Shown: piece by piece, positions 6,101 to 31,111 of the stretch | Numbering within the stretch: the stretch's first letter is position 1 | Layout: each line of letters opens with the position of its first letter | NCBI GenBank assembly: GCA_032718475.1 | Contig: JAUCBJ010000171.1 | Span: 1 to 43,839, forward strand | Origin: Nemertoderma westbladi | Taxonomy: Eukaryota; Animalia; Xenacoelomorpha | DNA length: 43,839 nt | Direction: 5' to 3' | Position numbers and translations under genes: made by a program | The notes under the pieces: model-generated | Seen by the model: only the letters and a program-made list of their open reading frames with translations | The model's database searches: none | Told to the model about the DNA's origin: nothing

Positions 6101-6143
6101 AAGAGACATACCAACCTTACAACCTTACGAGACCTGGGATTAA
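3102..6143 (+). pseudogene. pol: Element A pol: protease C-terminal half, reverse transcriptase and RNase H (Pao peptidase-A17 region)
   Basis: MLIGTD, RTPIGW, GHYEVGMLW, YYLPHH, KVRIVND, DVEAMFHQV, FGARDSP, FYVDDGL, FDPLGFISP, LHCFSDAS, PRAELQAA, YWTD, WRHCPGPQNPADIASRG. ORFs 3102-4031 and 4038-6143 are in one frame, split by TGA 4029-4031 (probably CGA>TGA). Confidence 0.95.
5753..5927 (+). repeat. 12-bp coding minisatellite (PDxx tetrapeptides) in the RNase H-integrase linker
   Basis: Recurrent CCAGAC; peptide PDVSPDGQPDMLPDVSPDAQPDTLPDSQPDILPDMS... Confidence 0.85.
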
Positions 6144-7896: not shown

Positions 7897-8557
7897 TAAG
7901 GAGTTTACAAATAGATTTCCACTTACCTGTACGCTGTAGTAAAGACAGCGGTAGAATTCCATTGTCTTTATATGCGAACATTGAGGGTAGTACCCTTATG
8001 TGTCACATAGGAGCGGGATTTGTAGGTATAAGAAATGGAATTCTACTTGGAACTCACAATATTGAGACATTTTCGAAATTTTAGACAATCCATTTGGATT
8101 TGAAAATTTTTTAAAATTTTCTCCAGTGAATAGATTTCAGGGTACAGTCGGGTGGAACTTAAAATTAGAGAAACAAGAGAATGGAAGACTCGCGAGCCTT
8201 TCTTAAATTTTAATAAAATTTACACGGTCTTGTTTCAATAAGTTACGTCGAATAATATACTTCCCTATATTTATTACTAATTCTTGATTGCTTATTTTCT
8301 GATAATAGTTTGGGAGCAAAAAGTGAGTATTTTAGACTCACAGCCAGTTTAGCCCAAAATCGTTTTTATTTCGGCAAAAATTTTAGATAAGAAACAGCGT
8401 GTCATTAAAGAAACCCTAGATCTTAGGCTATGGGTAGGAGGTTAGAGCGTTGTCGAGCCAAAAGGGCAGACGAAAACTCTCACATCTCCTCACAACTAAC
8501 AATAAACTCTGTTGTATTCCCTCTAGTAGTAATGATTATGTAACCATACCTCTAATA

Positions 8558-11500
8558 ATGGCGAAGGGGATACATGGAGAGCCGAGATAGGGATATGATA
8601 TCCAAGAGGAAGCAGCAGCGCCATTCGAACGATTTGGAGCTAAGGATTACACCATATTTGGAATAAAGGATTTATCAGAAAGTACAGCGAAACTCGCAAA
8701 GACTAAATATGACTCGAATGTATTAAAGAGAAGGCAAAACGCATTAAATGAAAGAATCGAAAGTTTACGCAAAACCTTCAATGAACTTTACCCGTACGAC
8801 GCTTTATGTGATACGGGAGATATTAGCGAAGATCCCGATACCGAAATTAGTCGTTTGTATCATACCATGCAATACCTGAAGGCGCATGAACCTATGCCCG
8901 CGGTACGCGATGAATTCGATGGAATGCATCTTTACAGACGAACTCGAGGGGACGATAGAGAAACGAAGGAAGCATTTTCAGTTTATAAACTTTATTATCA
9001 ATGTGGTGCTTGTATGCACGAACAACGAAATGCGATTCCGATGCGTTTGAATAAGGAAAATCCCGAACCGATATTGGCGAGGTGTTCGAACCATCAACAA
9101 CTACGCTACCAGGAAGGAGGGTATCCTTTATCGAATCCATATCATTCATTCGCTATGTGTGGACCAAAGGCGGGAGAAATTGTCGTTTACCCATCTAAGG
9201 TTGTTGAACCCGATGCATTTGAACTTACGCTGGACGAGGCGACTCAGTCAACCCGCGAAAAGAAGGAAGTTCTTAGCCTATACAGAGCCTACAAGGCTTT
9301 CGAGAAAGGTGAGATGGAAGAATGGGGCGGAAGACTCGCGAGCCTACCTTACCATTGGACGTCACACGATCAAACTTCAGCTAAGGAGATGACACCGGAA
9401 GTTTTCGAGAGTATAAACTTTGCTCAAAACGTTATTCAGAGACTACAGATTGCATCTCCGGAAAGGACAAGAGAAATGCAACCGTATAGTACTTCGACTA
9501 CGAAACCATTGAGTACGACACTCAATTTCCCTATTAGTATACCAGTTCGACAAGATACGACGTATGAAATACCTATTGTGGATCATCCGGAAATCATTTC
9601 GAACTTAGAGTTTCTTCCTGCAGTCGTTCTAAGCGATATGGTTAAGATATATGATTTACGTAGACATATTACGTAAAAGGTCGTGCATAATGTTCCGCCT
9701 CATATTCAAGACTTTAGGGAACTGGATAGAGCTGGCGCTGATATAGCTCCGAGTAACCTGAAAGGATATTTAACCAGAACAATTCGCTTATGGATTGGAA
9801 CAGGAACCTTTGAGTCGGATACAGATATCGCTGCGGACTGGCAAGGTAAAGTCATTCGTTTCGAAGACGAAAAGGACATAGAGAAGATTTGGCAACCTTC
9901 GGAAGAATTACTGGACGAATGGAATAGGACGTTTAGATCGTTTCAGGAAAACGGTTACATGTTTTATGACAACGAGGGCGGCAGCCATCAGCAGAGTCTG
10001 ACCTCCAAGACTATACAAATTAGAGCGGCAGATGGAGTTTTGCACGTTTTCAGTAGACAAAGGAGCGACAAGCGAATGCCGATTCCTCCAGAAAGTACCA
10101 AGCGGCACCATTTCATCACTAATATAGTAAAGAAGATGGACCAGGCTTGCAATATCGATGCTAGAATGTTACCAAAGATGGTGAGAAATATGATTTTAGA
10201 TAAAACCGTTGTAAAGATTGGATCAGGAGTGAGAGAGGACTTAATTAGCGACTTCGCCGGCATGTCGGACAGTGACGACCGATTACCGACACCTTACGTC
10301 GACACTCGACCTCTTATACTGTGGTCTATAGAACAAGGATACTTCCGTGAGTATGATACTCAGAAAACCGGAACTGGATACATTTCCTACCTGATGTTTA
10401 ATTGGGATTACAAGGAAAGTAAAAGAACAAAGAATATCGAAACGTATGGAGAAGGTGATACTCCGGATATAAATGAGTTTGAATCACAGCTCAAATGGAG
10501 AGGATGCGTATATTGGGCTATTACTTCACCTCCAAGAGCGGTACTACAATATTATTTAGCGATAGAGTCATCAGTGAATGTTTGCTTAGTCGCCGACATT
10601 GTGTCTCGGACTCTTAAAAGACATCCACTTTGCCTCGGAGAAGATCATACATTCTACGTGGAAGGGAGAATTCATACCGACGTGTTTAGACGATTTCTCG
10701 AACCCTTCTACAATTCCGACGCTCAGTGTAATTCCTTCACTCGAGCAGGATTTAGTATATTTCGAGACGTGTATCTTCGCTGTGCGGGATCTCTTATCGA
10801 AAGACCATCTATGTTTACATTGTTACCCTATGAAGGAGAACGTATCGTGGAGCTTACGGACGAATCACGGCAGACGCGCGCGCCTATCGGTCACTTAGGT
10901 GATGATTTCGAAGTAACAACGATCATTGACGATCCTTTAGAGGAACTTCTTGAGATTGAAAGGAACCTCCCGAAGAAATCTCAGACGGAGATTCGACAAC
11001 TAGAAGCAACAGATGCTGTAGTTTGCATACAACCTTCTGAAAGATACCAACCTATCGATCCAGACGATTATGATTATAGTGTGGGAGGAAGCGCTCGACC
11101 CATTGAAGATCTTATATATGAACGAGTGTGGTACCCTGCTAATACAATGTGTGGTAAATGTGGCGTCACTGGACATCATTCGACAAAGTGCAGTGGAAAG
11201 CACATTACTACGACTCAACTAATCTGTGGATGGTGTGGAGATCAAGGGTCCCATACATTTTATACTTGCTGGAGATTTATGGCTCAATGCACATACTGCA
11301 ATATAAAGGGACATCGAGCATCTGAATGCCAATTGCGAGACATACCTTACTAACACGAATCTGTAAAACTCGTGCGAAAACTATTTGATGATTGGGAAGA
11401 TTTAGCTGACGAACATGTATCGGCGCAAAGAAGACAGTTCCCGATGAGAGCGCATCTTGGATTTTGGGCGGTAAATCCCCAAACGATGATGTCGGAAGGA

Positions 11501-12280
11501 TATATCTCCGCTATGCCACAATATGACGAACTCATCGAGGTAGTTGATATTTTGCCTCACGATAGTGGATTTCGAGTTGTGCGCGAATACTTGTTACAGA
11601 TACACCCTGACAATAAGAATACATGGAATTTCCAGAAAGTCGTTAATCGTATCACGTATGGTGAATTTGATCGTTTCCGAATGGAAAAGCGGAACAAGGA
11701 AGCTTGGTTAACCGTCGCATGGGCGTACCGAGCCGCGTTCTACCATAAACATATACGAGCGAGCGTATTCGAGGAAGAGGAGGTCCTAGAGGCGACCAAC
11801 ATACCAGCTACTCCGGTCGCGCCGTCTGCACGTCACCCTCGGGAGGACGGACAGCATAGGATCATAAGGGTTCAGAAAGTGGGCCAACAATTAAAGAAAA
11901 CTATCAATGTTGAAGAACGAAGGGGATACGAACCGACTATTCGAATTACACGGGATACGGTTTCGCTTCCCAGAGAACCGCAAGGAGGATCGGGACATAT
12001 ACCAGCTGATCAAAAGGGGGCGCAAGCTTCTCTTGGGTCTGCGTCGCCCGCTTCCCGTGCGTTCCCAGACGTTTTACCAGCGGTAGACACAACCGATCGG
12101 TCACGAGGAATTGGACGAGGATTTGGGATAACTAAGAGACGAATATGTGAGGAAATGGTCGTACCATCTCCCAACGTCCATAGTAAACCAGTGACTCGCC
12201 CCACAAGTCCTATATCACGAGCTAAATCACCGATACGCAGTTTTCGAGGACGCGGCAGAGCGCGATCAGCTAAGCGATAA
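8558..12280 (+). pseudogene. Element A extra ORF (~1240 codons): Cys/His-rich N-terminus + DEDDy-like 3'-5' exonuclease + 3 CCHC knuckles + basic tail
   Basis: ATG 8558 and track ORFs 8855-9676, 9683-11353 and 11372-12280 share one frame, split only by TAG 8588-8590, TAA 9674-9676 and TAA 11351-11353. Exo I GYMFYDNEG (9953-9979), Exo II VVKIGSGVRED, Exo III YLAIE (10553-10567). Knuckles at 11150-11329. Confidence 0.8.
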
Positions 12281-12376
12281 ATAAAGTGTTATATTTAAAA
12301 GGACTAATTATTCCGAACTTGCAAAACTTTATAAAGTGGGAAGGAAAGAGTGGACGGAAGACTCGTGAGCCTTTCT

Positions 12377-12830
12377 TTGTATTGTTTATGCAAATTGTAT
12401 TGTTTATGCAAATTGTATTGTTTATGCAAATTGTATTGTTTACGTAAATTGAATTGTTTATGTAATTTGTATTGTTTACGTAAATTGAATTGTTTATGTA
12501 ATTTGTATTGTTTACGTAAATTGAATTGTTTATGTAATTTGTATTGTTTACGTAAATTGAATTGTTTATGTAATTTGTATTGTTTAAAATTTATATTGCT
12601 CTAAATTTATGCAATTTATATTATTCTAAATTTATGCAATTTACATTGTTCTAAACTTATGTATTTGTATTGTTCCAATTTTGAAATTCAGAAGGTTTTA
12701 TATTTAGAAGGAATTTATATTTGAAAGATTTATATTTGAGATGCAAAAGAGTTTATATTGTTCTAAACTTATGCAGTTTATATTGTTCTAAACTTATGCA
12801 GTTTATATTGTTCTAAACTTATGCAGTGTA
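12377..12830. repeat. AT-rich 18/36-bp then ~25-bp tandem repeats in the 3' non-coding region of element A
   Basis: TTGTATTGTTTATGCAAA units, then 36-bp TTGTATTGTTTACGTAAATTGAATTGTTTATGTAAT units, then TTATATTGTTCTAAACTTATGCAGT units. Confidence 0.9.
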
Positions 12831-13343
12831 TATCTATATTTAGTAAAGATTTACATTTAGAAAGATTTATATTTAGAAAGTGCTATATTTGTAGTCATTC
12901 CAAACTTACGCAATTTATTGTTTCGAATATTATGCAATTTATATTTTATAAAGAAGCAGTATTTGTATTCGCAGTAAATAGAAGGCAAGAGCAGACGGAA
13001 GACTTGTGAGCCTTTCTTGTGATTTATTCCGAACTTATGCAATTTGTTTTATATTTAAGTAGTATTTGTATTTGTGATTGTTTGAATTTATGCAATATTT
13101 GAGATGCAATAGATTTATTTTGGTGAATTTAATTTAGATTTATATTGTACTTACTTAATAAAGCCTTAAATACGTAAAGTTTGAATTTGTAATTATTTTT
13201 GTATCGAATTATTATGTAGAGGTATTATTGTTGAGATTTAATTTGTAAATATGTAAGTACGTCCCAAGTATTCCATAATTTGATTTAGTATTGGTGAAAA
13301 ACGTATATTTTATGCACGATAATATCCTGTTTTCATGGAGCGG

Positions 13344-13975
13344 TATAGAATTATATTCTCATAAATGCCGTGGATTTTCAAAATTTTATTTTGTTCGAAT
13401 TAACTTTGCTATAAAGATTACATTAAGTCCTCATTTGCATTTACCATATCTATTTGTATAACATTGTTCAAGTGGTTCAGTAGCTCAGTCGGTTAAGCGT
13501 TGGAAATTCGTGTAGTAGGTATCGAGTTCGAATCCTAGTAAGTGTGAATTATTTTTTGTGCTGAGTTTCAACTCATTTAAATTAACCGCTACAAATTAAA
13601 TTGCATTTGCTCAAGGTAGATTAACCAATAGGATTGCAGTTATTAGATAGTAACCAATGTCGTGCAAGATACGTGTTCGCTGGACCAATGGTTATCTTTA
13701 AAAACCTATTAGAACTCATAGAACAATCTAGATTTATCTCGATTGATTGCAGCACAAATTTGCTATAAAAGGTGCGATTTTGTTCATTAGTTACCAGATT
13801 ATCACTTATTAGTTATCTATCTCATTAGTTTCTTGTTACGTTTATTGTATATTAGTTTTGTAATAAAAGTTAGAAATACTTGTTACATCTGTTTTTTACT
13901 ATGTTTCACCACGGTGAACCCAACTGAGGGACAGATGGCTGGCTAAACATAGGACCGCGGCGATAGACGGGAACA
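13344..13975 (+). repeat. Putative 3' LTR of element A
   Basis: Follows an imperfect hairpin and GGAGCGG (13337-13343). Contains CCAAT at 13625, 13654 and 13685, TATAAAA 13764-13770, AGTTATC/TCATT initiator-like repeats resembling those in element B's LTR, and AATAAA 13862-13867. Candidate end GGGAACA 13975. It starts TA rather than TG and there is no second copy, so the limits are uncertain. Confidence 0.5.
13474..13557 (+). ncRNA. tRNA-like Pol III unit (pseudo-tRNA or SINE head)
   Basis: A box TAGCTCAGTCGG 13481-13492, B box GAGTTCGAATCC 13524-13535, T6 run 13552-13557. Acceptor and anticodon stems do not pair, so not a functional tRNA. Confidence 0.6.
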
Positions 13976-15205
13976 TCAGAGGAATGTAGGAAGGAGACAA
14001 CCCGCAATATCTATTCTTAAGTTATTCGCCCATCGCCTGAAAGGTTAGACAGCGTTCAATGCCTTGCTACCTAAGTGTAAGACCAAAGATCAAAGGTAGA
14101 GGTAGTGACACGCTGTGCGCTAAAATTACATCTAGGGACCGTACTGTCTTAATTCAGAGAAAAACCCGCAGTAGACCTTCACATTCCTACGGGGGGAGAG
14201 CAGGCAGAAAGATACTAGTACACAGGTGGGACGCAGGCACACCAGTACAAGGCATACACATTGGTAGGGTGCAGCAAACTGTACGCCTAACTCTTGCTAA
14301 GTATAGGTGCGTCGGTGACTGTTTGTAGTACAACGGTGTCCATTGCATTAGAACTTGTAGGCTAGAAGGGTTACTGTGTTTTACCTGAATTAGGATTGTA
14401 CCGTTCAGGCGGTAGGGCAGTTTACCACTAGGCGCAAATAAATTGAGGCTATTTAGGGATACTAACATCTACCGTGTCCCCGCCGACATTCTGTTAGGAA
14501 GTTGCCGTGCCCATCTAGGCAACCAAAATTCTAGATAAGAACGCCAGGCTAGCTATTTGTAACAGTACGCCTACTGTAGTAAACTAACACATTTCTTCTT
14601 AGTATTAGGGACCTGGTAAATTAAATTGCCGAATTCTGGGCGTAGTATTAACCTTATGCCTGAATTTGAGTCCTGGAAATACACAAAAGGGGAAGGAGCC
14701 TTATCATTCGTGAGTATTGGACCTACAAGTTACAAAATTAGAATATTTGTAAAATGTACACCGGACCCAGTAATTATATATGTGAAGGATCAAAACTGAT
14801 TTTGACTGTTAAAATCAATACACGCACGCGTTAGAAATTATTTACACCTCAAAATATATAAAATAATTTTTGTCCGTACTGCGCTTTGCCCACTAGTTAG
14901 ACCTTTCTGCACCTAGCTAGCGTCTCTTTATCCCAACCATATAAATCACACCGCGGCAAAGTATACGAGCGCCCTTAGTCCGTCAGTGAGTCAGCCCGAT
15001 TTTAGGATTCGCTGCGCGGGATTTTGTTTTATCGAAGTTTGTCCGTTCGTAGACTGTTTTCTGCCTCACCGGTTATAAGAGACCGATACTGCAATATATA
15101 TTCGCTTACTTAGAGTTTACTGTTTTGGTGAGAAGGCCGGATTTATGATTTGATTCACAGACTTTACAGTAGGATATTGCAGGTATTAGGTACGTCTCTT
15201 CGAAT

Positions 15206-15940
15206 ATGCATAAACTCAAAGATTAGTTAACTGAGGAATGATTCTTAGTTCAAATACATACTTCTATGCTTCCCACTACTATCACCCTAAAGCATTAATA
15301 ACACTCCTGCCCTCCAGGTTTCATACATTACATTAATACAGTGCACTAATGTAATCGCCATTATAATGGTAAAGTATGGGACAATTTTCAATTGGCCACC
15401 ATGATATTTCTGAGGGAGTAGATTATGAAACTACGGGTAATTGTTTCTTAAGATGAAGCAACACAAACGTGCTTTGCATTCCACTGGGTGATTGGGCTGA
15501 GTTAGATTACTTCTCTGTGTATAAATTAAAATTTCACTATTTTTTGGTAAAGTATGGGACTTTACATGCATAAACCCAAAGATTTCTTGACAGAGGAATG
15601 ATCTCAGATCAAATATAGACTCCTATTCTTACGGCCGACTATGACCTTAGAGTATTATAACACTCATGGCTTCACATATTACATTAATACAGTGCACTAA
15701 TATAATCGCCATTTTGATGGTAAAGTATGGGACAATTTTCAATTGGCCGCCATGATATTTCTGAGGGAGTGAAGATGAAACTAATTGTTTTATACGATGA
15801 CGCAACACAAACGTGCTTTGCATTCCACTGGGTGATTAGGCTGAGTTACATCTCTGTGAATAAACTAAAAATTTCACTATTTTTGGTAAAGTATGGGACA
15901 TCACAAGATTAACTTTATCGATTTCATTACAGAGGAATGA
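15206..15940. repeat. ~360-bp tandem duplication (2 copies plus a trace of a third)
   Basis: ATGCATAAAC(T/C)CAAAGATT at 15206 and 15566; shared TTACATTAATACAGTGCACTAAT, GGTAAAGTATGGGACAATTTTCAATTGGCC and GCAACACAAACGTGCTTTGCATTCCACTGGGTGATT. Confidence 0.9.
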
Positions 15941-17307
15941 AACACTGGTGAAATTAAATAAAACCTAAAAAATTCGAAAATGGGTTTGTTTTTGATTTGG
16001 TACATGCTCAGAAATGTTAATTTATTGGTCATAGAAAGTGCCTACAGGAAACGAAACTTTTGCACACTTTTATTCACATTTTGTGCAGAGCAGGTGCATA
16101 ATTTGTAATTCGACTATTTTTGATAAACCACCTGTGTTGATACAATTTTTAGCACTGAATTCAGGAAGTACGATAAATTTTGACCTAAAATAAGTATAAA
16201 TTCAAAGCTACATCTCAATTTTAGAAATTAGTGGGGAGGTTGACCTTTTCATGGAATGAGCCATTAATGATATCCCTACGCTAAGGCTCACCTTACTTCG
16301 TGGCTCGCCCCACAATGGTAGTTATTTAATTTATTTATATCAATATCTGATTTTATTATAAAGAACTATTTAATTAAAATTAATTTAAAAAATGGAGATT
16401 TTTCATCTGTATACCAATGATATACAATTAGTAGTAGTATACTGTAGGAGTAAATAATTAATTTGATGCAAGTGCTATATGAAGAATGGCCAAATAAGTA
16501 ATCCCAAACTCAACTCAAACTCACACTAACCAGACATTGTATGGGTGTAGTTATGTTATATGTATAGTTGTATATGTGTAGTTATACTTAGCCTATTGGT
16601 TACCATAGTTACCTTAGTCACTCTCATATAAATACATAAGTAATTAATTATATACTTAATTATTTATATCGCACGCGATGCGACTTCACATTTCCTCCAT
16701 TGATTGATTGAGGTGAGAAAATCTGAACGGCCTGTTTCCCCTAGATCGTAGGTATTCTTATGACGATTAAATGGAAGAACCGGAGTACCACGATCAGGAA
16801 AATCGTAAAAACCTTTGAAATGGTTGAGCCTCTCGCAGTCTCGAGAGATTCTTCCCCATTTGTTATTATTTACTATTTTTTTATTATTAGGGCCTACATT
16901 ATTATTTGTTCGTTGTTAAGGAATCTCATCAGAAACTGTTCCTCGGTAGCGATGTATGGCCGGGATATGCCGACTCCATAAGCGCAGGAGTGATATTGCC
17001 TCTTGCAACAAATAGGTGCTGCACAGATCCCTCTTATACTGTATTATAAATACTGTGTTGAAATAATTTTATGTATTGTTTTTATATTTATATTTTTTTA
17101 TTGTTTATAATAATCTAATCAAGGAAAAGTTAAATTTTAAGATTTTTAAACAACAATTATTTTTAGTTCGTATATAATTTATCCAGTTGTTTTACGTATT
17201 TTTTTCCTCTTTCGTCATGGAATCTGATTCACATTTCACATTCAGACATTCCACTTTTCGTATGTTCTACAACTGAGCTTCTTAAATTCTATAGATGTGA
17301 GGTATTT

Positions 17308-17531
17308 AGCGGGTGTAAACACTAAGCCGACAAATGACACCTGATAACCACTGCCGACAACGACAAATACGAAACAGTAGCCTATAATAATGGCACTCGT
17401 TTATTGTTTTGGTAAGAACAGCATTCCATTGTAACCTGTTCCATTACCTTAATTGATAATTAACAATAATTTGTTTCAATAATGATGGTCGGTTTTGATT
17501 GTCGGTTGTCGGCGTAGCGTTTACAACTGTA
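17308..17531. mobile_element. Small MITE-like element with imperfect terminal inverted repeats
   Basis: TGTAAACACTAAGCCGACAA (17314-17333) vs TTGTCGGCGTAGCGTTTACA (17506-17525): 18/20 inverted match; internal CCGACAA/TTGTCGG subrepeats. Confidence 0.5.
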
Positions 17532-17547
17532 TTTAGCTTGAAGTTAG

Positions 17548-18106
17548 TGTTAGCTTATTCAATTCCGCTAACACAAACCCATAAAGTAAGCCGTTAAGCA
17601 ATATTGGGGGCCACGAGGTTGATTACCCAATCTCGTGCCACCCCAATAAAATGGGAAGGAGAAACACACAATAAGGGTCAGGGGCCACACCCCTGACCGA
17701 GAGAGAATAGTAGGAGTGAAGGGAAACACTCCAAAGGGCGCCAACAGAGACATTAGCCAATGGGAGGGAGGCACCGGCTAGGTAGAGTAACAAGGCCATC
17801 CCGTGCAATATAACCAGTTTACAGTAATCAGTTATCTCAGTTATCTCATTGTGTTGGTCGGTTTAGCTAGGGTAGAACCGGTACTTCAATTACCGTCGTC
17901 GTACCTACCGTATCTGAGACTTCATCATTGTATATTCCAGTTACCTCATTTATACCATTATCTATTGAACTTATGCAACTATACTATTATACCTGAGAAC
18001 TTTGTACAGCGAACAATAACTCTTTACCTTTTACACACACACGGCGGGGACGCGACGCGTGAATCGAAAACCGGATAAACCGGGATCCTCTCTGGATCCC
18101 GTCACA
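17548..18106 (+). repeat. 5' LTR of element B
   Basis: TGTTAGC...CGTCACA; matches 31112-31670 except at 17567, 17785, 17799 and 17993. CCAAT 17757, TATAA 17809, TCAGTT 17828 and 17837, 8-bp hairpin CGGGATCC/GGATCCCG 18081-18101. Confidence 0.98.
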
Positions 18107-18417
18107 GTAATTGAAACCTAGCAGCTACCCTAATAGTAATTGAAGTCTAGAACTCCAACCATACCGATCTAAAGAGGAGATGAGTGACGTAACGCCAACG
18201 CGGACCCCGGAGGAAGAACCAACGATCTGCGAGGCCGTAACCAGACGGTATAGGCCCACGACGCCGGACCCATCGGTAATGGGTCATCCGGCAGATCAGG
18301 ATGAAGGGGGCCGTCTGGAGCCAGAGATCGAGCCGAGAGGAGCGGGAGCCGAGTTGGGAGAAGGAGAGGGCGAGAGGGACGGAGAAGAAGACGAGTCGAC
18401 ACGGAACGAGGGTCGAC

Positions 18418-18639
18418 GTACCGATGTCGCCGGCCAGCCACAGGCCGAGGGCGACGAACGGCCCACCGAAACGGCGACGGTGGGGCCGACGGTATGATGC
18501 CGGACCCGGAGAGATGGGGGAGATGTCGGTACCGATGTTGCCGGCCAGCCACAGGCCGAGGGCGACGAACGGCCCACCGGAACGGCGACAGTGGGGCCGC
18601 CGGTACGACGTCGGACCCGGAGAGACGGAGGAGAGGTCG
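18418..18639 (+). repeat. 111-bp (37-codon) tandem duplication in gag
   Basis: GTACCGATGT(C/T)GCCGGCCAGCCACAGGCCGAGGGCGACGAACGG at 18418 and 18529. Confidence 0.95.
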
Positions 18640-19298
18640 GCAACGAGGACGTCGGGGTTTCTGATCGACTTCGACGGGCCTACAACGCGACCCGGAAGCT
18701 ACTCAAGGAGGCCAAGGAGGGGGCGAAGATAGATGAGGTAAAGTTAACAACAGGACTAGGTGAGTCGGATAGACATTTTAATTATCTAATGCGCTTTGGG
18801 CAGAGAGAACTGGCCAAGGAGAGAGCGAGAGGGGTTGCAGAGGAACTGTGTGATTTATGGCGGTGTAGGGGTATGCAACCTATTGCAGTGTACGTAGGGC
18901 CATACTTAGCCGATGCCCGGGGTATAAAATTTGTGGGTTGGAGGAGACCTGAGGAGGGTGAATCCGAGGTTGACCCCGAGGATTCGGTCTCGTCGGTTGG
19001 AAGGAATTCCAGTTCCGGGAGGCGGGGGAAAGTTAGTAGATCGGGAGGGCGGAGGGAATCCGTCACAACCGATAAGTCTGCTACATCCTCCGTAAAAGAA
19101 AGACGGGTGAGAGAGATATATGCCGCGTACCATTTCGACCTGATAGCGCAAGGTCAGAGAGAAATAAATAGACGGTTTGAGGAGGGGAGAATGCTGCTGG
19201 ACAAGGAAATGGAACTGATTAGAGAAACCGGAGAGAGGGCCGAAAGGGCCGCGAAAAGCCTTAGGGACTGTGAGGAAATAGGGAGGAAGGAGCAAGAG

Positions 19299-19497
19299 GA
19301 GCGTGAGGCGAGAGAGCAGAGCGAACGCAAGGAGCGTGAGGCGAGAGAGCAGAGCGAACGCAAGGAGCGTGAGGCGAGAGAGGAAAGCGAACGCAAAGAG
19401 CGTGAGGCGGAACGTAAGGAACGTGAGGCGAGAGAGAAAAGTGAACGCAAAGAGCGTGAGACGAGGGAGGAAAGTGAATGCAAAGAGCGTGAGGCGA
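19299..19497 (+). repeat. 33-bp repeats encoding a charged coiled coil (EREAREQSERK)n
   Basis: GAGCGTGAGGCGAGAGAGCAGAGCGAACGCAAG, about 6 copies. Confidence 0.9.
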
Positions 19498-20157
19498 GGC
19501 GAAGGGAGGGAGCTAGGAGAGAGGCGGAATTGGCCAACCAGAACGCACGGGAGTGTCGGGAGAGAATAGCAAGAGAGAAGCTTGAGCGGAAAGAATTGGA
19601 AAAACGCCAAAAGTGAGCTTATAGAGTACAAAGCTAGACACACGTGCTAACTAGAACTGGCGCGGGTAGGGGCATCTGAGAGCGGGACTGGCTCGAATAT
19701 TTTCGAGGAGCCAAGGGCCGTGGATACATTTATTAATACCCCACTTACAGGGACCGCACGACAGACACGAAACTGTTGTGACCATACGGGCGGGGGGGGG
19801 GGGGGGGGTAATAATAATAATACAGTAGACGACGTTATTATTAATAGTACCGTATTAGATAACCCTAACCAAGCCTTTATTGCAGGAAATACTTTACCTA
19901 GTAGCAGTAATTTAAATTTAAATACAAATAATAATTTCAATTTAAACGTGCAAAATAATCCGAATAATAATTTAAATTTAGAAAATAATAATAATTCAAA
20001 TAATTTAAATAATGATCCAAGCCCGAATTTACAAAATAATTTAAATAGTGTAGTCGCGCAAAATAATCCAAATGATTCTGTTTCGAACGAACAAAATAAT
20101 TCCGTTTCTAATATAGGTGCTATTAACGCGAACTCGTCGGACGTGTATAGCCTGACA

Positions 20158-20337
20158 GACGGCGGCCTGGTAGGCCACGTAGTTGGTAGGTAGGAGGTGG
20201 TGGGGTTGAGTCGACCCGACGGCGGCCTGGTAGGCCACGTAGTTAGTAGGCAAGAGGTGGCGGGGTTGAGTCGAGCCGACGGCGGCCTGGTAGGCCATGT
20301 AGTTAGTAGGCAGGGGGTGGCGGGGTTGAGCCAACCC
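20158..20337 (+). repeat. 60-bp x3 repeat in gag (DGGLVGHVVSRQEVAGLSRP)
   Basis: GACGGCGGCCTGGTAGGCCA at 20158, 20218 and 20278. Confidence 0.95.
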
Positions 20338-22644
20338 GGAGTAGGCCCGATCGGCCAAGTACTAGTGGAGGGAGAGGCAGGGGTAAGTGAACCCAGCCGC
20401 AGTGAAAATGTTGTGTCGACTGGAGAGGGGTGTAGAAGAGAAGTAAGAGGTAGCGGTAAAATATGTGGCGAAAGGGGGGGGGGGCTACAGGAGCCCCACA
20501 ACGAGAAGTTGGTGGCGAGAGGGGGGGGGGGGGCAGAGAGTGTCCCACAGGCGTCGGCGGATAATGCGCGGGCCGAATCAGGTAAACCGCAACACCCGGC
20601 GACGGAGAGTAATAGGGGGATTGCGAGTATCCCCAGCGGCGTGCGATCGACCAGAGAGAGGCAGGTTGACGTCGCGAGAGGGCAGACGAAGCGTCGAGCC
20701 CGATCAGAAGAGGGAAGAAGAACAGTGGGGTTTAACCGGGAGGTCGACGAGAGATCTCAAGAGCGGGAATACTGCACTGAAGGGAGAAGAAGAGAAGACA
20801 GCAGAAGAAGTATTGCCGCGAACGACAGGAGAGTGAGGACGGATAGTGAGCCGTTGGTAGTCGAGATGGAAAGAGAGAGTCGGTGGGGTCGAACTTCGGG
20901 AGATTGCCGTCGTCCCGGAGAGACGCGACCTGACGAGACGCGTTACGCGTCGAGAGAGGGGTACACGATGTACCGGCACGAAGACGAGAATAGTAGAGGG
21001 GGTCGAAGAGAAACTTTCCGACGGGATATACCTACAGATCGAGAGTACGGTAGCTGCGGGGAGGATTATTCGAGAAGAATAAACTTCGATCCCGAGCAAT
21101 ACATACAGACTGTAGGACATACTATAGGCCTTACTGCACATACCATAGGCCATGCTGACAGAAATAATGTAGGCGATAGGATAGCGCGGACAACGGAATT
21201 AAACCCGGAAGTCGCGGAGTACATACCGGCAGGTAGGCCAGAAACTGATAGGCCTATACCGGTACCAGTACAGCAGTATGACTACAGCATGCAAGGACAT
21301 AACATATACCCAGGGGAGGGGGGAATTATTGCGGATAGATGCATGGGCCCCAATATATTAACATCAACCCCAGTACCAAACATACCGGTGGGGGGGGGGG
21401 GGGGACAGGGTGACATTCCCCCATCGCAATATCAACAATATACCCCGATAGGAGCAAGAACAACGAGACCCTTGGATGGAAATAGGTCATGTGACACAGA
21501 AATATGGAGGGGGCCGCTACCCCCAATGATATACCCAAGCCAAAGAAAGGCAGGAAATATGACGGGCGGACCACACCCAACAGGATAAATTATACAACAT
21601 CCATCGAATCCATTGGAAGCGCAGGCGATGGGGATGACCACGTTGATCGATGCATTAAAAACAAGGATCGAATTACCACCCGTGGAACCATTCAAATTCG
21701 ATGGGAGTAGGCCGGAAGAATATCTCCAGTTTCGGCGTATGTATAGTAACGAAATACTAACAAAGAACTTGACACAGGCGGAGTGCCTAAAGTATCTGCA
21801 AGTATACACAGGAGGCCCAGCATACGACATCGTGAGGCAATATCAGGGCATAGAGGGCGGTTTCACGACGGCATGGCGGGCACTGGACAGGGAATACGGG
21901 CACCCGGCCAAGATCATCAGGCAGACCCTGAGAGGCATAACATCGGGTGGCCTACAGGATAATCCCGTTAGCATTAAGACATTCGCGAACAAGGTCGAGA
22001 AGGCGCTAATCGTGTTAAAGACGCTAGACGCGCCATATGAACTCAACGCGTCCAACAACATCACCACGATAGCGCAGGCACTACCGATGTGGTTGCGCAA
22101 CAAGTGGAGGAAAATCGCTTTCTCCACTCGAGATAGGAAGGGTGCGGAACCGGGTTTAGAAGAAATGTCAAGCTTCTTAAACTACGAAGCTGAACTAATA
22201 ACCGACCCAGTCTATAGCGAAGATAGCCTGGGAAAGGGACCGAAGACGGATTACCATAGACCGAAACCAGAGCACAATATGTCAAACGCATTACCGAAGC
22301 TCAGGCAATCACTGCCATATGCAGCAACGCAGGGGACTGCAAGTCCACAGGTAGCCGAAGGAAAGACCACACCATGGAATGGACAGGGGAATAACAACAA
22401 CACGAACAAATATAATCCCAGTACGTCCAGTAGGCCGAACCCAAACAATAAGAATAGTAGGGACTTTGGTACAAACGCAGCTGCGATACGCAATGCACTG
22501 TACAAGGACGGCTACGACCCAAAGAGCAAATGCCAGCTACATACAAATGCGCTTCATCAAACCATGAACTGCAGGTACTGGCAAGCGCTACCCAGGGAAG
22601 ATCAGGTAGAATACGCGGCGAGGAATGAGATCTGCTCATGATGT

Positions 22645-24880
22645 GTGATGAGCGGACATAGAGCTAGGCAATGCAAGGAGACGCCGGTCAAGTTCGGTCA
22701 AAGGAAAGGCCAAACGATAGCAACGAGCACAGTAGGGGCGAGGAAGAGAGGAACGGTGCTACTTGGGGTAGTGCCTATGCGAGTGATTGGAGAAGGCAAT
22801 CGATCAGTAACAACACTAATGCTGGTCGATAGTGGAGCTGCCTTCACACTAGTCGAGGATTGGGTGGCCGAAGAAATAGGATTGAGAACGAGGCCAAGTA
22901 GAATGGCGGTAACAACCATCTCCAGTAAAGATGAGGTCCTGGAGATGAGAACCGGACGGTGCACCATCGCAGCAATAGCACCAGGATGCGATTATGGGGC
23001 GAGCATCGACCCCATCCAAGTGATAGAGTCAATAAACATCAATGCCAGACGGCCAACCAACATCGAGGTCGAACAATATAAATTGCTGGATGATAATCGA
23101 CTTCTCAATCCCAGAGGCGGACGTTAGGAAGGTATCCATCATAGTAGGAATGGACTGCCCAACGGCCCACGAAAGAATGCAAACGGTCTTCGGCGAAGAC
23201 AAGCAGTGTGACCCGGTGGCGATACTGACACCATTCGGGTGGACGCTGAGTGGCCCAATCAAGAGTAAAATACCATTTAGGATGTCGGAGACATCAGGAT
23301 GCATGTTCGCGGGAACTATGCAGGAAATGGGTGACGAGAGAGCAGAGGAGCAGCTTAAGAGACTGCTCAGACAGGATTTTGAAGGATTAAAGGAGATCGG
23401 GGTCGGGACCTCGGTAGAAGACAAGCAGGCTCTACAGAGCGTAGAGGAGTCTATGAGGTGTGATGAGGGGCGGTATACCATAGGGATGGTATGGAAGCTA
23501 CCAAAGCTACCGCTATCCGATAATAGAGGGATGGTACTCACGAGGCTTCGTAAGTTGAAGCAGACACTAAAACGGAGCCCCGAGAAGAATGAGTACATCC
23601 ACAGAACGATTAAGAAGTACGTCGAGAAAGGATGGGCCGTGGAGTTACCGGTCGACGAACCAAACACAGATAGGACGTATTACCTACCACTCCACGTGGC
23701 TTTAGACCTGAAGAAAGGTAAACTGCGGATGGTAGTTGACGCATCGGCAAAGACCAACGGAAAATGCTTAAACGACTATCTACTAGAAGGTCCGAACATA
23801 TACAACTCAGGGATAGAGGTCCTACTTAGATTTAGAGATGGGAAACACGCCTTCACGTGTGACATAGAAGGCATGTTCAACCAAGTCCGTGTAGCGGAGG
23901 AAGATAGCGACAGTCAACGCTTCTTATGGTACAACGGAGACGAAGAACCGTCGATAATACCGACGCACAAGATGGTAGTACAGAACATGGGAGCCAAGTC
24001 GTCTTCATTTACGACGACTATGGCAGTAAGAGATACAGTGAAGGGGAAGGAGGATAGATACAGCACTAGGGCCGTCGATATGATTCGAAGCGGCTTCTAC
24101 GTAGACGACGGAATGGAGTCTGGAAATACGGTTAAGGAGATACTGGACACAGGGCGCGAGGTTCACGACATCCTGAAAGGATCCGGCTTTAACCTGACCA
24201 AATTCCAATCCAGTTCGGAGGAATTTATCAAGGCGATAGGGGACGAGAGACCAGAATCGACTATGGATAATCCCACAACAGCCAAAGGGCAGGACATGGC
24301 AAACAAGAGGACAGAGTCTCAACAGAAGGCACTGGGAATCGTGTGGGACAGAGAGACAGATGAACTGAAGTACCAGCTGAGCCAGGAGGGCACAGACGTC
24401 CACACAAAGAGAGGCTATGTGTCATACATAGCAAGAATATACGATCCCCTAGGTCTAGCATCCCCACTATTAGTCACGGGGAAACAGATACTCAAGAGAG
24501 TATACAAACTGAAGGATGAGTGGGACGTAGAGGTACCAGAGGAGATCAAGAAACAGTGGTGTAAGTGGACAGAAGATTTAGAGAAGATGGGAACATACAA
24601 CATAGCGCGAGTGTATTTTCCGGATGGGAACATGACGAATCTGGACCTACACATGTTCTCCGATGCGTCGTTGGAGGCATACGGAGTGGCACTCTATTTA
24701 GTACAACGAGAGGGGGCTCACAAGCCCAGACTGGCCTTTAGCAAAGCAAAGTCAACGCCGCCAGATTCAGCATCATTTCCCAAACTAGAATTGACAGCTG
24801 CCAGACTAGGAGTTAGGGCCACAGCCTACCTAGTGGATACTATTCCCAACATACACACTACTGGACGGATTCCATGGTAG
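22645..24880 (+). pseudogene. pol: Element B pol: protease, reverse transcriptase, RNase H
   Basis: LMLVDSGAAFTLV, IIVGMD, LTPFGWTLSGP, YYLPLH, KLRMVVDAS, DIEGMFNQV, FYVDDGM, YDPLGLASP, LHMFSDAS, PKLELTAA. Frameshifts near 23090 and near 24860 (HYWTDS continues in the next frame). Confidence 0.95.
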
Positions 24881-26736
24881 TGCTTGGCTGGCTACATAAC
24901 GAAAAGACGAGATACCCTATATTCGTCGCGAATAGGGTGGACGAAATAAGGGCGACCACAGAATTGGAAAGGTGGCACTACTGCCCAACGGACGAGAACC
25001 CAGCGGACTTGTTATCGAGGGGCGTGGCACGCCACACTTTCTTGAAGAAGGAAGTATTCTGGCAACACGGGCCACAGTTTCTGAGCGACAAGGAGGCCTG
25101 GCCGCCGATGAGAAAGGTTGACCCGGGCTCAGGAGAGGTAGTGTCAGAAGGAGAAGAGGGAGATTCAGAGGGAGAAGAGATATACTCCCAGATGGTGAGG
25201 GAGATAAGGGACGTGCAACCTAAACCAGAAGAACTGTGCGATAACCCGACGGATAAACTCCTCAACTACAGCTCTAGTTGGTATAAGACCAAGAAATTAG
25301 TGGCGTACTGGAGAGCCTTCAGGAATTTCCTTGCGGGAGTTGGCAAAGGCAAGAAGATCAGGGCAACAATAGATCTGGAAGAAGCGGCCAAAGCAGTAAT
25401 CCGCTATGAACAACGGAAGAGCTATGGCGACGAGGTGGAACGCGTCGGTAAACAACAGCATCTCCGACGGGATAGCGAGTTGATCACGCTGTCACCACAA
25501 CTTAATGACGACGGGATTCTAGTAATGAATTCTAGGGTGGGATACAACAACAGCATAGTCGTACCACCGAAACCCATCATCATTCCCACAGGATCGCCAA
25601 TAGTCCACCAGATTATCTGGGACTCCCACAAGTCGATATTGCACGGGGGCACCAACCGAACCCTTACGGAGATACGGAGGACCTTTTGGGTCAAGCAGTT
25701 GAGGAAGAAGGTAAAAGCAGTAGTGGGGCAGTGCCAGACCTGCCGACGAGCGAAGAAGGAGCGAGCCATACAAGAGATGGCACCACTACCAGCGAGTAGA
25801 GTAAGACAGCACGACCCACCATTTACACATTGCGGTGTGGACATGTTCGGGCCGATAAAGATCAAGGTGATGCGGCACACGGAGAAACGCTACGGTATTA
25901 TCTTCGTATGTAACAACACGCGGGCGGTAGGGATAGAACTCGCCCAAGATGCAACCGCATCAGCATTTATTAATGCATTAGAAAGGTTCAGAGACCGCAA
26001 AGGTGGGACAATCGCAGTAATGTACTCCGACAGTGGAACCAACTTTGTGGGAGCAGAGAATGAGATGGCAGAGGCCTTGGACATCTTGGAAGGGGAAGAA
26101 GTCAGGGCAGCCATGAGACGACGACAAGTAAAGTGGGAGAGAAGGACGCCGTATGCACCACATACACTAGGATGCATCGAGATACTAGTGGGCAGTTCGA
26201 AGCGTCTCATGACGAAGTTAATGAACACCCACATGGTCACGGAGGACATCTTGAGAACAGTACTTGCGAAGTGCGAGGGTATCATTAATAGCAGACCGCT
26301 ATATCCGGAGAATGATGACCCTGAGTCATTAGATGTGCTGACGCCCAGCCATTTTCTAATGGAAAGGCCAGCGACCATCGATATGCGGGGTGTAGACCCA
26401 GATGACATACACTCCCGCCAGAGTTGGAAGGTCGCTAAAGCGATAAGCGCAGAGTACTGGAGAAGGTGGGTTGAGGAATACCTACCCATGCTTCACAAAA
26501 GAAGCAAGTGGAGGAAGTCGAATAGGGAGTTAAGAGAGGGAGATCTCGTAATCGTTATGGATGATACTATCATCAACAACCAGTGGCGGTTGGCAAGAGT
26601 TGTAGGCACTTACTCCGATGAGGACGGAAGAGTCCGATCGGTAGAAGTGCGGATAGGTGGCAAGATAGGTGCGAAAGACAGAAAACCCTACAGGAGAGCT
26701 GTAGGGAAATGCTGTCTATTAGAAGGGGCACCTTAG
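24874..26736 (+). pseudogene. int: Element B RNase H C-terminus and integrase
   Basis: FVANRV, WHYCPTDENPADLLSRG, HKSILHGG...CQTC, GVDMFGP, YSDSGTNFVGA, EGIINSRPL, LTPSHFL, YWRRWVEEYLP, DGRVRSVEV. Confidence 0.95.
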
Positions 26737-26845
26737 ATCGTTTGTTAGAGAAGAGTTTAGTCGTCCAAGTTTTGGACTGAGGGGGGTGGGATTGAGGGCG
26801 AGACGCCCTTCCCACACATAAAAATAAAAATAAAATGAATAAAAA

Positions 26846-27385
26846 TTAGAGTTAGTTAGTTAGGAGTCAGTTAGAAGGTACGTAGTACCTATAATTAGAA
26901 TTAGTTAGTTAGGAGTCAGTTAGAAGGTACGTAGTACCTAGAGTTAGTTAGTTAGTTAGTTAGGAGTCAGTTATAAGGTACGTAGTACCTAGAGTTAGTT
27001 AGTTAGTTAGTTAGTTAGGAGTCAGTTAGTTAGAGGTGTTAGAGAAGTAGTAAGAGGGTACGTAGTACCGGTGGTTAGTAGAGTTAGAGGTTAGTAAGAG
27101 GGTACGTAGTACCGGTTAGTAAGAGTAGAGCTGGAAGTTAGTAAGAGGGTACGTAGTACCGATAGTTAGTGGAGTTAAGAGTAGTAAGAGGGTACATAGT
27201 ACCATTAGTTAGTGGAGTTAGTTAGAGGGTACGTAGTACCATTAGTGGAGTTAGAGTAAGAGTTAGAGGGTACGTAGTACCGCTAGTTAGGGAGAGAGAG
27301 AGTAAGAGTTAGAGGGTACGTAGTACCGCTAGTTAGTTAGAGGTTAGTAAGAGGATACGTAGTACCGATTAGTAAGAGAGAGAGG
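26846..27385. repeat. Tandem array of 11 GGTACGTAGTACC hairpin motifs in (AGTT/AGAG)-rich spacers
   Basis: Motif starts at about 26877, 26926, 26977, 27057, 27101, 27148, 27191 (variant), 27228, 27269, 27315 and 27354 (variant). Confidence 0.92.
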
Positions 27386-27850
27386 TAGAAGGGTATATAT
27401 AGTATATATATTAGTCAGTAGTTAGTAGCGAGAGGGGGGCATATGAGTACAGTTGGATAGATCGTGTAGGCCACACGACATATACTGCTGTACTGCACAG
27501 GCCCATAGAGTAGGTCAGAATGCGGATTATGGAATAGAATAATCCATAAACAGTAAAGTAATAGAATTAAGTTAAATCAAAATAAATAGAATAAATAGGG
27601 CTAAAATTACAGATTATGGTAACAGCAGGGAAACTATTCTGGAACATACTTAAAGCAACGGACAGAAATTGTAAATTAGGGTACATTTCTTAGCTACAGA
27701 ATTAAGTAATAGAAATTTAGGCTAAAAGGCGTAGTTAGATAGGAAATAGGCCATTCTCGAACTGTGCAGACCATCAGAAACTAATCACTCATCTGTATTG
27801 CGCCTTGGTAAGGCACCACCTCTACAGGTGAGCGAGTGAGAGTGTTCGGA

Positions 27851-30408
27851 ATGGCGGGAAAACTGATCAGAAAGAGAAAGGCGGAGCAAGGAGGAAAGGA
27901 GATACTGGTGGATTTCACCAAGAGGCATCCGGAAGAGAAGACGAGAGGATACTACGAGAGGTTGGAAAAGGGTCACGCGGCACGCAGGACCACTTCCGGG
28001 AGATGCACGAACAGTGGCTGGTCGGGACATACGGGACGCCGTCGCTGGACAACGCGATCTTCCAACACTTCCACTACGTGGTGAAAGGGGACGAGGCGAA
28101 GTTCGGGATTCCGAAGTACCTGAGGGAGTCGCCGAAGAAGGATTGGAAGAGGTTTATAGAGTCCGTCAACAGGGGAGGATATATGATCCTAGACGACGAG
28201 GGAACCATGGAAGACTAGGAGGGTTCGAGACGAGGATCAGCAGGGTCGGCCAGGACCATACTCCTACATTTGGCCGCGCCAAATGGGGACATTTTCTTAT
28301 TCGACCTAGGAACGTATTGGAAAAAGGACGGGCCAAAATTAAACCGGTTGCCGAAAGCGGTGCAAGTCCTGGTAAGAGAGAAGTCGACGACGAAAGTGGG
28401 ATCGGCGATTCATGAGGACGCGGAGAGAATCATCGGTCCGGACGCCACCAACCTCCTGGATATGCAGAAGGTCTTCATGGCTATGACAGCACCAGACGGG
28501 TTGGGAGTAGTCGGGAACACAGGTCAACGCGGAGCGGTGGCAATGGGCCAGCTATTGGGGCTCGTATGCCACAAACCGATGGACTGGGGGAAGTTCAGGG
28601 AGGAATACGGAGCAGAACTAGCGAACTCGCTAAAGTGGGGAGCGAGACCAGGAAGGCAAGAGGTATATCAATTCCGCAGAGGAGCGATAAAGGTATATCA
28701 GAAGCGATATATCCTGCAGGAAGATTGGATAATGATAAGTTTGCTCAACTTATTCATGACCGTGGTTATCGAGAGGGAACCAGCGGCATTTCTGTTATCG
28801 GGATCACCCCTAAGCTACAGGAGAGCCTTTAAGACGGCCTTCGACGGTCTGGTAGACCACCCGGGGCTGAAGGGCGAGTCGGTGTACTACAACAGCCGAC
28901 ATCTGATAGACGGGGAGATAGATACGCCGTATCAGAGATGGGAGCAGCTAGAGACGGATAGACGAGAGGCAAAGCGACTGGAAGAAGTCGCGAGACGGGA
29001 GAGGATAGAAGCAGAGGAGAGGGAGGAGGAGGCCAGGACGCAGAGTTACGGCTTCGAGGAACAGGCAGGCTTAGACGAACTTCGTTGGACTTCATCAGGG
29101 AGTTCGGGGGAGTCTCTAGGGCGAGAACTGGGATGGACGGTGGGATCGCCGAAACAGTCGACGTTGGGGTTGCAAGCGATGCCCATACCAGCGGGCGCCG
29201 AAGGCGACCAACCGCTAAGGAAGTTGAGGGAGCTAGAGGGATGGAGAGCTACGGGCGAGAGCCAAGGCGGGAAGGGACATAGTGGATCCATCGGGATACC
29301 GGGGTTGGAGCCACTGCCAGAGGAGGACGAAGACGACGATGAGTTCGGAGAGATGCCGCCCATCGAGAGGATTGGCCACTCGGACACGGACTGGGTTGGC
29401 GGGAGGGTGGTGACGGCCAGTGGGGCGAGGGCCTTCTGGGATAGACCCGGCAAGCCGGCCTGGGTGCACGAGGAGCCGGCGATGGATTTCGCGGGGAGCA
29501 CTATCAGGTTGGGTGAACAACCGGGGACGGCACCACGGGTAGTATTCGGGGAGACGATGCCCGAGAGGGGCGAGGAGATCGACGTAGACAGGGACACTAA
29601 CGTGCAGAAGTTCGCCTACCAGCGACTCCACAGACCGCGGAGATCGCTTGGGACGAAAGACGACGTGGGGCGGGAGACATTGGTACTCGGTTGCGATTAC
29701 TGTGGGAGACAGACCCACCAGGAAAGGAGCTGTTTGTACCGATTCCAAAAGGGGACCTTTTGTCTCTACTGCCGCGAGTCGAGCCACAGGATGGGGGCGT
29801 GTCCACGGTTGCATAACCGATGTCCGAAGTGTAACTTTCGGGGACACTACGGATGCCAGTGCGACTGGATGGACGACGAAGAGAAGTTCAGAACCTTCGA
29901 GGAGTGGGCCGACGTCGGGGCCATGATGCGCCAGCGCATGAAGGCCCAGGAGTTCAAGTGGGGTTTCTTCCTTATCAATCAGGAGGCTCACTTGGAAATC
30001 ATAAAGCGGAGGTTACCGTTTACCTATCAAGAGGTAGCAACGGCGGCGTCGTATGCCGGAGTGATAAATACACAAAGGTATTTGGACAGGTGGACGCCAC
30101 AGAACCAAGGGGAGTTTAGGGATTTCCTGGCGGAGCACGTGCCGCGGGCAATGAAGATGATCTTATGGGATGCCACCACGGGGAGACAACAGGGCCACTT
30201 GGAGGGGCCACCTGCGAAGCGATATCGGGAGCTGATAACACCAGCACCCAAGGAGCCAACGACCGGGATCAGTAAGGAGGTGGCGGCGAGGGTCCGAAGA
30301 CAGAAAGCGGATCCCAGAGGAGCGGTAGTGACCAGGAAACGACCCAGGGAGGAGGACGGCAAAGGGAAAGACTTGAGGTGGTTCCCAAAGTCAGGGGGGA
30401 TGAACTGA
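27851..30408 (+). pseudogene. Element B extra ORF: DEDDy-like 3'-5' exonuclease + acidic linker + 3 CCHC knuckles + basic tail
   Basis: ORFs 28003-28218 and 28270-30408 are in frame across TAG 28216-28218. Exo I GYMILDDEG (28177-28203), LHLAAPNGDIFLFD, Exo II TTKVGSAIHED, Exo III YILQE (28708-28722). Knuckles at 29692-29862. Start uncertain (ATG 27851 needs a frameshift; alternatively ATG 28003 or splicing). Confidence 0.82.
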
Positions 30409-31073
30409 GACTTCGATGTGGAACGCCTGGAAGGTGCCACGTGAGACGTGCGAACTATTAAGTACAAATTCAAAATGATGCAAATAATTAAATAAGTGCA
30501 ATTTGTATGTACGTACGTAGTAATCAGTAGTTTAGTTATGAAATATATGTTCGAAGTGAGTACTATAGTCATTCAACCTTTCTCAATTAGCTACTGGGAC
30601 TGGGGGGCTAACTGACTATGGTACTATGGACGAGACACTAGACAATTTCACACTTCTTGAGTGCGACGGCACAGGAGGGGGGGGTGAGATTCGTCAGAAG
30701 GGATGAGGTAGTCAAAGAGGGGTCGAGTAAAGGTGATAGTGCGGAGTGCGGAGAGAGTGCGAATGCAATTCAAGTGTGTGGGAGGAATAAGAGGCTGAGT
30801 GAGGGACAGGGAAGTCCGAGAGTTAGAGCGGTAGTGAGGAGAAGTAGAGGAGAGTCAGGGTGAGAACAGAGTGGAGTTAAAGTGGCAAAGTGTTGGGGAA
30901 ACAAAAATCGTGTGAGAGGAGCGCACGATCGGCCCGACATGGGACGCCAGGCAAACCGGGTAGCGATATCATACCCATAGGGGGCGGTCTGGAAAACCGG
31001 CTCTGAAAAATAGTTCCACCCCACACCCGATAATAGATCGGGATCCAGCGGAATTGTAGCGCACTTTAGGTGG

Positions 31074-31111
31074 ATGCTATCTTCTCACCGGGAAGATAGC
31101 ATGGGGGGGAG
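31074..31111 (+). promoter_or_regulatory. Hairpin plus polypurine tract of element B
   Basis: Perfect 11-bp stem ATGCTATCTTC (31074-31084)/GAAGATAGCAT (31092-31102), then GGGGGGGAG directly before the LTR TG. Confidence 0.9.

Follow-up and report, generated by a model that had tools for sequence, protein, structure and literature searches.

A contig of the xenacoelomorph Nemertoderma westbladi (GenBank assembly GCA_032718475.1, contig JAUCBJ010000171.1, 43,839 nucleotides; the whole of this stretch is called the window below) raises the question of why two diverged retrotransposons should each carry the same additional gene. The plus strand of the window contains two BEL/Pao elements, A and B, whose reverse transcriptase (RT)/RNase H regions are 36-38% identical and whose integrases are 30% identical, and in both a third open reading frame (ORF3) is found downstream of integrase, that of B lying inside its pair of long terminal repeats (LTRs). 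A sequence-only reading had placed the ORFs and laid out the elements in this way, and its coordinates and architecture hold, both in the frames and in the BEL/Pao Pfam matches upstream. ORF3 is very probably an old accessory nuclease gene kept under selection, in which a DnaQ/DEDDy-fold exonuclease domain is followed by a zinc module.

ORF3 and the proteins related to it

The features of the two ORF3s are the following:

8558-12280, plus strand: ORF3 of A, 1240 codons in one frame from ATG 8558 to stop 12280, with in-frame stops at 8588, 9674 and 11351
9887-10640, plus strand: exonuclease domain of A, ligand codons D 9968, E 9974, D 10238, Y 10553 and E 10565
11144-11600, plus strand: three Cys/His knuckles of A (C 11150 to C 11327) with a conserved helical extension
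8495-8526, plus strand: predicted splice acceptor of A (ACTAAC, branch-point-like, then a pyrimidine tract and AG)
27851-30408, plus strand: ORF3 of B, from ATG 27851, with a frame break near 27970-27985 and a stop at 28216
28144-28791, plus strand: exonuclease domain of B, ligand codons D 28192, E 28198, D 28417, Y 28708 and E 28720
29689-30033, plus strand: three knuckles and helical extension of B
27780-27827, plus strand: weaker branch-point- and acceptor-like signals of B (predicted)

The extent first given to ORF3 of B stands, the frame break having gone unstated. In A the exonuclease-plus-knuckle stretch is free of stops from 9677 to 11350. When the two ORF3s are compared directly the match is weak but real, as had been claimed: BLASTP gives E 1e-6 in the zinc region and 5e-5 in the exonuclease region, and local alignment scores of 76 and 94 exceed the maxima of 51 and 56 reached in 300 shuffles each, and the two are thus related beyond chance. 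Among the paired blocks from which their relationship was originally read, Exo I, strand-2/3, Exo II, Exo III, the knuckles and FE..AD/GF are recovered in an alignment of 46 family rows, whilst LWIGT/WLVGT is no family motif and LKWRG and LKWGA fall in different columns. ORF3 of A has about 400 extra N-terminal residues (8558-9770) that contain a few Cys or His and are absent from B, and its N-terminal 361 residues have no match in Pfam or the PDB.

A two-sequence profile of A and B was searched against 1.84 billion cluster representatives and gave 105 matches at E<=0.001, from short ENA, NCBI, JGI and Logan contigs; names were checked for 30 of these relatives, and 29 have none, the other being a 'hypothetical protein'. 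The exonuclease followed by the zinc module is seen in 54 of the 105, the exonuclease only in 1, the zinc module only in 47 and neither in 3, these counts using profiles from 44 of the 105 and being partly circular for those 44. Within the window the 44-relative exonuclease profile finds only A (E 6e-20) and B (E 2e-25), and the corresponding zinc profile finds A (E 2e-15), B (E 4e-22) and weakly the Gag Cys-His box of B (E 1e-3). Word-seeded homologue searches with A, B and the 46-row alignment returned none, an uninformative blank given that the collection searched contains members of the alignment. The family is easily overlooked because it falls below Pfam cut-offs: DNA_pol_A_exo1 (PF01612) has no match in A or B and is weak in 3 of the 46 rows, where the best score of 23.3 bits lies below the curated cut-off of 23.6, and no meaningful NCBIfam family is matched.

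The DEDDy/DnaQ fold proposed for the first domain is nevertheless supported by profile, model and structure searches alike. Compared with the PDB, the 46-row family profile matches EXD2 at E 1.8e-16, trypanosome RNase D (TbRND) at E 1.7e-8 over both domains, WRN at 1e-5 and Egalitarian at 7e-5. An AlphaFold model covering A 9770-11632 has a mean pLDDT of 66.7, in which two confident domains (core blocks at about 80-94 in each) are joined by a linker of low confidence at residues 319-455; a single-sequence folding attempt gave a pLDDT of 31. With this model Foldseek ranks EXD2 first, at E 5e-4 the sole match at E<=0.001, followed by NrnC, Egalitarian, WRN and Nibbler. The VIA structure list, whose rows span model residues 41-337 only, is filled by DnaQ-fold proteins (top Z 11.5, rmsd 4.3, 171 aligned), the best rows being diDNase/NrnC, Nibbler, WRN and RNase D (Z 10-11.5, rmsd 3.7-5.5, 150-204 aligned), and the Atlas features give 0.93 to a WRN-like cluster, 38% of whose members have PF01612. 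At E<=0.001 the model matched nothing in a viral-structure search.

Exo I DxE, Exo II D and Exo III Y are all present in A and B and in 40, 42, 43 and 44 of the 46 rows, position by position. The last ligand of Exo III (YxxxD) is Asp in 39/46 rows and Glu in A, B and four others, so that both active sites in the window read DEDyE; this substitution, like the large family and the self-pairing primer site of B described below, had been missed in the sequence-only reading. In rows with all five positions the four ligands are acidic in 39/42 (31 DEDyD, 6 DEDyE), and they are kept at roughly 20-35% identity among family rows. A and B fall within a 7-row group that contains all six rows with Glu at Exo III, with an SH-aLRT value of 92 that is not decisive, the tree being a quick one with long branches and its careful search unfinished.

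The domain has its fold and Exo I-III in common with EXD2, WRN, Nibbler (mut-7) and Egalitarian, EXD2 being the nearest by both profile and Foldseek. It differs from them in an identity of about 15%, in an insertion of about 40-50 residues ahead of Exo III, in the added zinc module, and in that ORF3 of A and B has no membrane anchor, helicase or HRDC domain. ORF3 was also considered as an orthologue of EXD2, which was rejected: there is no N-terminal hydrophobic anchor, and it is a multicopy element gene and not a single-copy cellular one.

The ligands of the zinc module are nearly invariant, ten of the twelve Cys/His positions being kept in 46/46 rows, one in 45/46 and one in 41/46. Its likeness to the knuckles of Lin28, AIR2 and nucleocapsid proteins is weak (E 1e-4 at best), and it differs from the BEL Gag Cys-His box, the third finger of which ends in His (PMC554778). 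Four long proteins (P0062, P0078, P0083 and P0084) have the full zinc-plus-helix module with no detectable exonuclease, the module being a portable domain that has as yet no name.

The sequence-only reading held that ORF3 was not env, and this is borne out. The best 19-residue hydropathy is 1.39 in A and 1.44 in B (values above 1.9 occur in 4 of the 46 family rows), and by this measure neither ORF3 has a transmembrane segment; with no signal peptide, membrane anchor or fusion-protein fold found, an identity as env was rejected. BEL/Pao (Belpaoviridae) elements that do have an env ORF, such as Tas and Cer7, belong to the same superfamily and carry it in the same post-integrase slot (PMC554778, PMC3118150), whereas ORF3 of A and B is a predicted soluble nuclease and no fusion glycoprotein. 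ORF3 thus extends the non-env accessory genes to BEL/Pao.

The novelty originally claimed for this architecture was overstated. DEDDy ORF3s have been described in the Juno and Vesta LTR retrotransposons and the Athena/Terminon elements of bdelloid rotifers (Rodriguez et al. 2017, PMC5408684), a work which states that DEDDy exonucleases had been unreported in retrotransposons before it. As described there, the rotifer ORF3s resemble those of A and B in being separate DEDDy ORFs after pol, without a transmembrane segment, and with ligands intact save one Asp-to-Glu change. Compared by description, A and B differ in having BEL/Pao hosts, a best match to EXD2/WRN and a fused module of three knuckles and helix, the passages on the rotifer proteins writing the motif as DEED and mentioning only a Cys-His-Cys motif. 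Furthermore an exonuclease followed by CCHC knuckles is already a solved architecture in TbRND (PDB 7C42/7C45; PMC7797062), which is however a cellular mitochondrial enzyme with four knuckles and a short linker, whereas A and B are retrotransposons, and in their ORF3 the linker is long and of low confidence and the knuckles, three in number, come with a helical extension; the likeness is probably convergent. No exonuclease ORF in BEL/Pao was met with in the open literature searched, a search whose scope left aside repeat databases, subscription papers and supplements, nor in the passages available of PMC3118150, PMC2774666, PMC8556966, PMC554778, PMC11662393, PMC6338049, PMC6431247 and PMC5718144. 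The architecture is not categorically new, and a large undescribed family stands behind A and B. The purpose of the rotifer ORF3s has been unsettled since 2017. An exonuclease-like region may also have been noted by Malik et al. in 2000 in nematode Cer elements.

Flanking DNA was obtained for one of the 105 relatives (locus L001); relatives' loci numbered 0 in the viral contigs and prokaryote genomes scanned and 1 in metagenomes. At this locus an ORF is succeeded by an LTR-like stretch, a TGG motif and the beginning of a further ORF that has no match, an order which fits a collapsed LTR element whose type the flanks do not name. The BEL lineage that the sequence-only reading saw ORF3 as defining is therefore a hypothesis. 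In the first ORF (124-2025, relative P0003) the exonuclease is decayed and the zinc module occurs twice in tandem; downstream of this ORF follow the LTR-like stretch, the TGG motif near 2963, which we take to resemble a tRNA-Arg site, and an acidic ORF start without a Pfam match.

Copies of the two elements and selection on ORF3

Four DNA runs, from 3 studies and at most 3 samples of which one is possibly the source, were compared with the window. All 30 bins of A and of B, ORF3 included, are covered in 4/4 runs, with thousands of variant contigs, and both families are multicopy. At two of the three stop codons of A all depth in the four runs reads otherwise, so these two stops are private to the copy in the window; the third stop of A and that of B lie outside the rows listed. 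The frame break of B differs in length in some contigs, and one contig over 8617-10503 has 159 differing letters and no gap. A deletion joint within ORF3 is seen at 9432-11645 in other copies of A.

That ORF3 is an old accessory gene under selection had been suggested before, and is upheld by the acidic ligands and by the copies of B. In ORF3 of B the copy-varying rows listed are 8/8 synonymous, all in the exonuclease, against 0.33 expected, and the near-fixed rows are 4/4 non-synonymous, a count weakened in that these 12 rows were chosen by the tool from more than 2000 and the threshold was set afterwards.

Possible functions of the nuclease

We would picture ORF3 as having been captured from a cellular gene of the EXD2/WRN type and as being expressed in the env slot from a spliced message, the predicted splice signals ahead of its ATG being present in both elements and clearer in A. 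The protein would be a two-metal 3'-to-5' trimmer, presumably catalytic, in which Glu has replaced the last Asp in one sub-group. By analogy with TbRND the knuckles would hold single-stranded RNA, and the targets may be host small silencing RNAs, as unmethylated precursors or tRNA fragments and not as mature Piwi-bound piRNAs. In TbRND the knuckles enhance both the binding and the cutting of RNA, and small guide RNAs become depleted when the enzyme is overexpressed (PMC7797062). Rotifer Terminons carry DEDDy ORFs and are without an LTR-type primer site (PMC5408684), and the use that such elements share in the nuclease is thus probably not tied to priming. It is since such nucleases ride elements with different priming modes, and since the fold neighbours include small-RNA trimmers, that host small RNAs are favoured as substrate; of the roles proposed in the sequence-only reading it is therefore small-RNA counter-defence that comes out ahead, with proofreading and transport the weaker. 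Taken as a whole this mechanism, an RNA trimmer that degrades host small silencing RNAs, is put forward tentatively, at somewhat under an even chance.

A number of observations weigh against it. Mature piRNAs are 2'-O-methylated and protein-bound, which blocks such trimmers. ORF3 is broken in both copies in the window, and there are copies of A without the exonuclease (deletion joints 8703-10730 and 8717-10842) and copies of B without the knuckles (29663-30418 and 29858-30393). In ORF3 of A, for which 13 rows, again a subset chosen by the tool, are listed with 2 rows at stops left out, the copy-varying rows are synonymous in 1/4, all four lying in the unconserved tail, the near-fixed figure being 4/9. 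Glu at Exo III could lower activity. The exonuclease is decayed in some relatives, and 47 of the 105 hits match the zinc module alone; although these include many fragments and unrelated knuckle proteins, several are long and have the full module, so that the central function may lie in the zinc module. EXD2 cleaves both DNA and RNA (PMC6648332), and the substrate, expression and splicing of ORF3 are predictions from sequence.

A different use for the exonuclease is suggested by the leader of B, where the following are found:

17868-17893, plus strand: candidate self-primer, a segment of the B LTR that can pair with the leader (exactly so over its last 9 bases)
18107-18146, plus strand: primer-site position of B, without TGG; the LTR segment is matched by exact complements at 18107-18115 and 18136-18146

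No TGG, and hence no tRNA-type site, occurs in B within 60 bases after the LTR. The exact 9-base complement arises in 25/5000 shuffles and the extended 18-of-27 match in 0/5000, there is a second exact complement of 11 bases at 18136, and the end of the would-be primer coincides exactly with the LTR boundary. The duplex energy is modest, being equally low in 9/500 shuffles, and GC-rich control 30-mers pair more strongly. TATA/initiator-like motifs lie at 17809-17846 and the segment about 45-55 bases past them, so that the 3' end of a self-primer would have to be generated within the RNA. Self-priming of the Tf1 type uses RNase H. A primer site complementary to its own LTR, with no tRNA site, was found in element B only, and is as in Tf1/Tj1 (PMC4600332); those are however Ty3/gypsy elements whose RNA has the primer at its 5' end, whereas the position predicted in B, a BEL/Pao element, is internal.

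The exonuclease could therefore mature the element's own RNA, above all such a self-primer, by trimming an RNA 3' end back to the leader duplex. Besides the pairing in B, L001 counts in favour: in this sole relative with context the active site is decayed and the LTR-like stretch is followed by a TGG-type motif. This is however one case against one, the primer site of A was not found within the window, the pairing was noticed post hoc, and self-priming of the Tf1 type has been described without an extra gene (PMC4600332); we regard this use as rather unlikely. It would seem less likely still that ORF3 is an RNA-binding adaptor in the manner of Egalitarian or EXD1, which packages, shields or transports element RNA with the zinc module as its working part. 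Both of those proteins are among the fold neighbours, the zinc module is kept by members with a decayed or no exonuclease, and in each element a palindromic motif is present in multiple copies as a candidate binding site, but a dead fold would not need the four acidic ligands that are kept in 39 of the 42 rows.

An enzyme that acts on DNA, whether in RT proofreading, in trimming of cDNA ends or in the removal of cDNA by which the host would be alerted, would be in keeping with a fold common to polymerase proofreading domains, WRN, diDNase and TREX1, and with EXD2 it depends on the metal whether DNA is accepted (PMC6648332). Nevertheless ORF3 is a separate ORF with no fusion to Pol, its knuckles resemble RNA-binding modules and the copies are highly variable, and we consider a DNA substrate improbable. 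Least credible of all is that the ORF3s are captured passengers, or host genes, of no use to the elements, for which it can be said that both copies in the window are broken and that context is known for one of 105 relatives. This is already largely refuted and very improbable: ORF3 lies inside the LTR pair of B, in 4/4 runs it has coverage together with the remainder of both multicopy families, the ligands are conserved, and the third-position GC of ORF3 tracks the pol of its own element (A 0.39 against 0.34-0.41, B 0.67 against 0.57-0.58).

The broader suggestion is that A and B belong to a widespread, unrecognised and long-lived BEL/Pao lineage whose EXD2-derived, knuckle-guided RNase would destroy host small silencing RNAs or make a primer without tRNA, which we offer as a possibility that is more doubtful than not. 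How LTR retrotransposons of animals evade silencing by small RNAs is largely open, and the family offers dozens of very divergent proteins that are naturally intact and conserve the active site, with sub-groups that look active and others that are decayed. With these proteins, and with the stop-free stretch of A, substrate and role are directly testable.

The elements and the remainder of the window

The other parts of the two elements are as follows:

2305-7896, plus strand: gag remnant, protease, RT/RNase H plus integrase of A (broken BEL/Pao)
17548-18106, plus strand: 5' LTR of B, 559 bp, TG..CA, with GTTAG at 17543-17547
18180-26736, plus strand: gag, protease, RT/RNase H plus integrase of B (BEL/Pao; several stops and frame breaks)
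31112-31670, plus strand: 3' LTR of B, 4 mismatches to the 5' LTR, with GTTAG at 31671-31675

Both have a Pao-type RT/RNase H and an integrase in the order protease, RT, RNase H, integrase. Peptidase_A17 is matched above the Pfam cut-off in both (E 1e-42 and 1e-37), as is DUF5641, with DUF1759 in B. B is complete, with a purine tract before its 3' LTR, two TG..CA LTRs of 99.3% identity and the 5-bp target duplication GTTAG at each end, and at 14.1 kb it exceeds the 4.2-10 kb given as usual for BEL/Pao. Its LTRs differ at 4/559 bases, yet many stops and frame breaks are found in 17548-31670; B may be a defective copy that was moved in trans, or its LTRs may have undergone conversion. For A no LTR pair, 5' LTR or primer site was found within the window. 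A tRNA-like stretch at 13470-13550 lies in what is likely the 3' LTR region of A; ARAGORN and Rfam made no call there, and the window as a whole yielded neither a tRNA gene nor an Rfam family.

Along A a near-palindromic motif of 15 bases is repeated, both within coding DNA and outside it (3709, 5731, 8184, 9330, 12357 and 12998), with 11 matches at <=3 mismatches, both strands counted, against 0.53 expected, and is a possible cis-acting binding site. In B, between integrase and ORF3 (26844-27384), a 13-base hairpin-like motif occurs 11 times in a purine-rich array. The minus strand at 33200-39800 holds broken pieces of a non-LTR retrotransposon (RVT_1 E 2e-34 at 34668-36617), part of which recurs in inverted orientation near 33271-33762.

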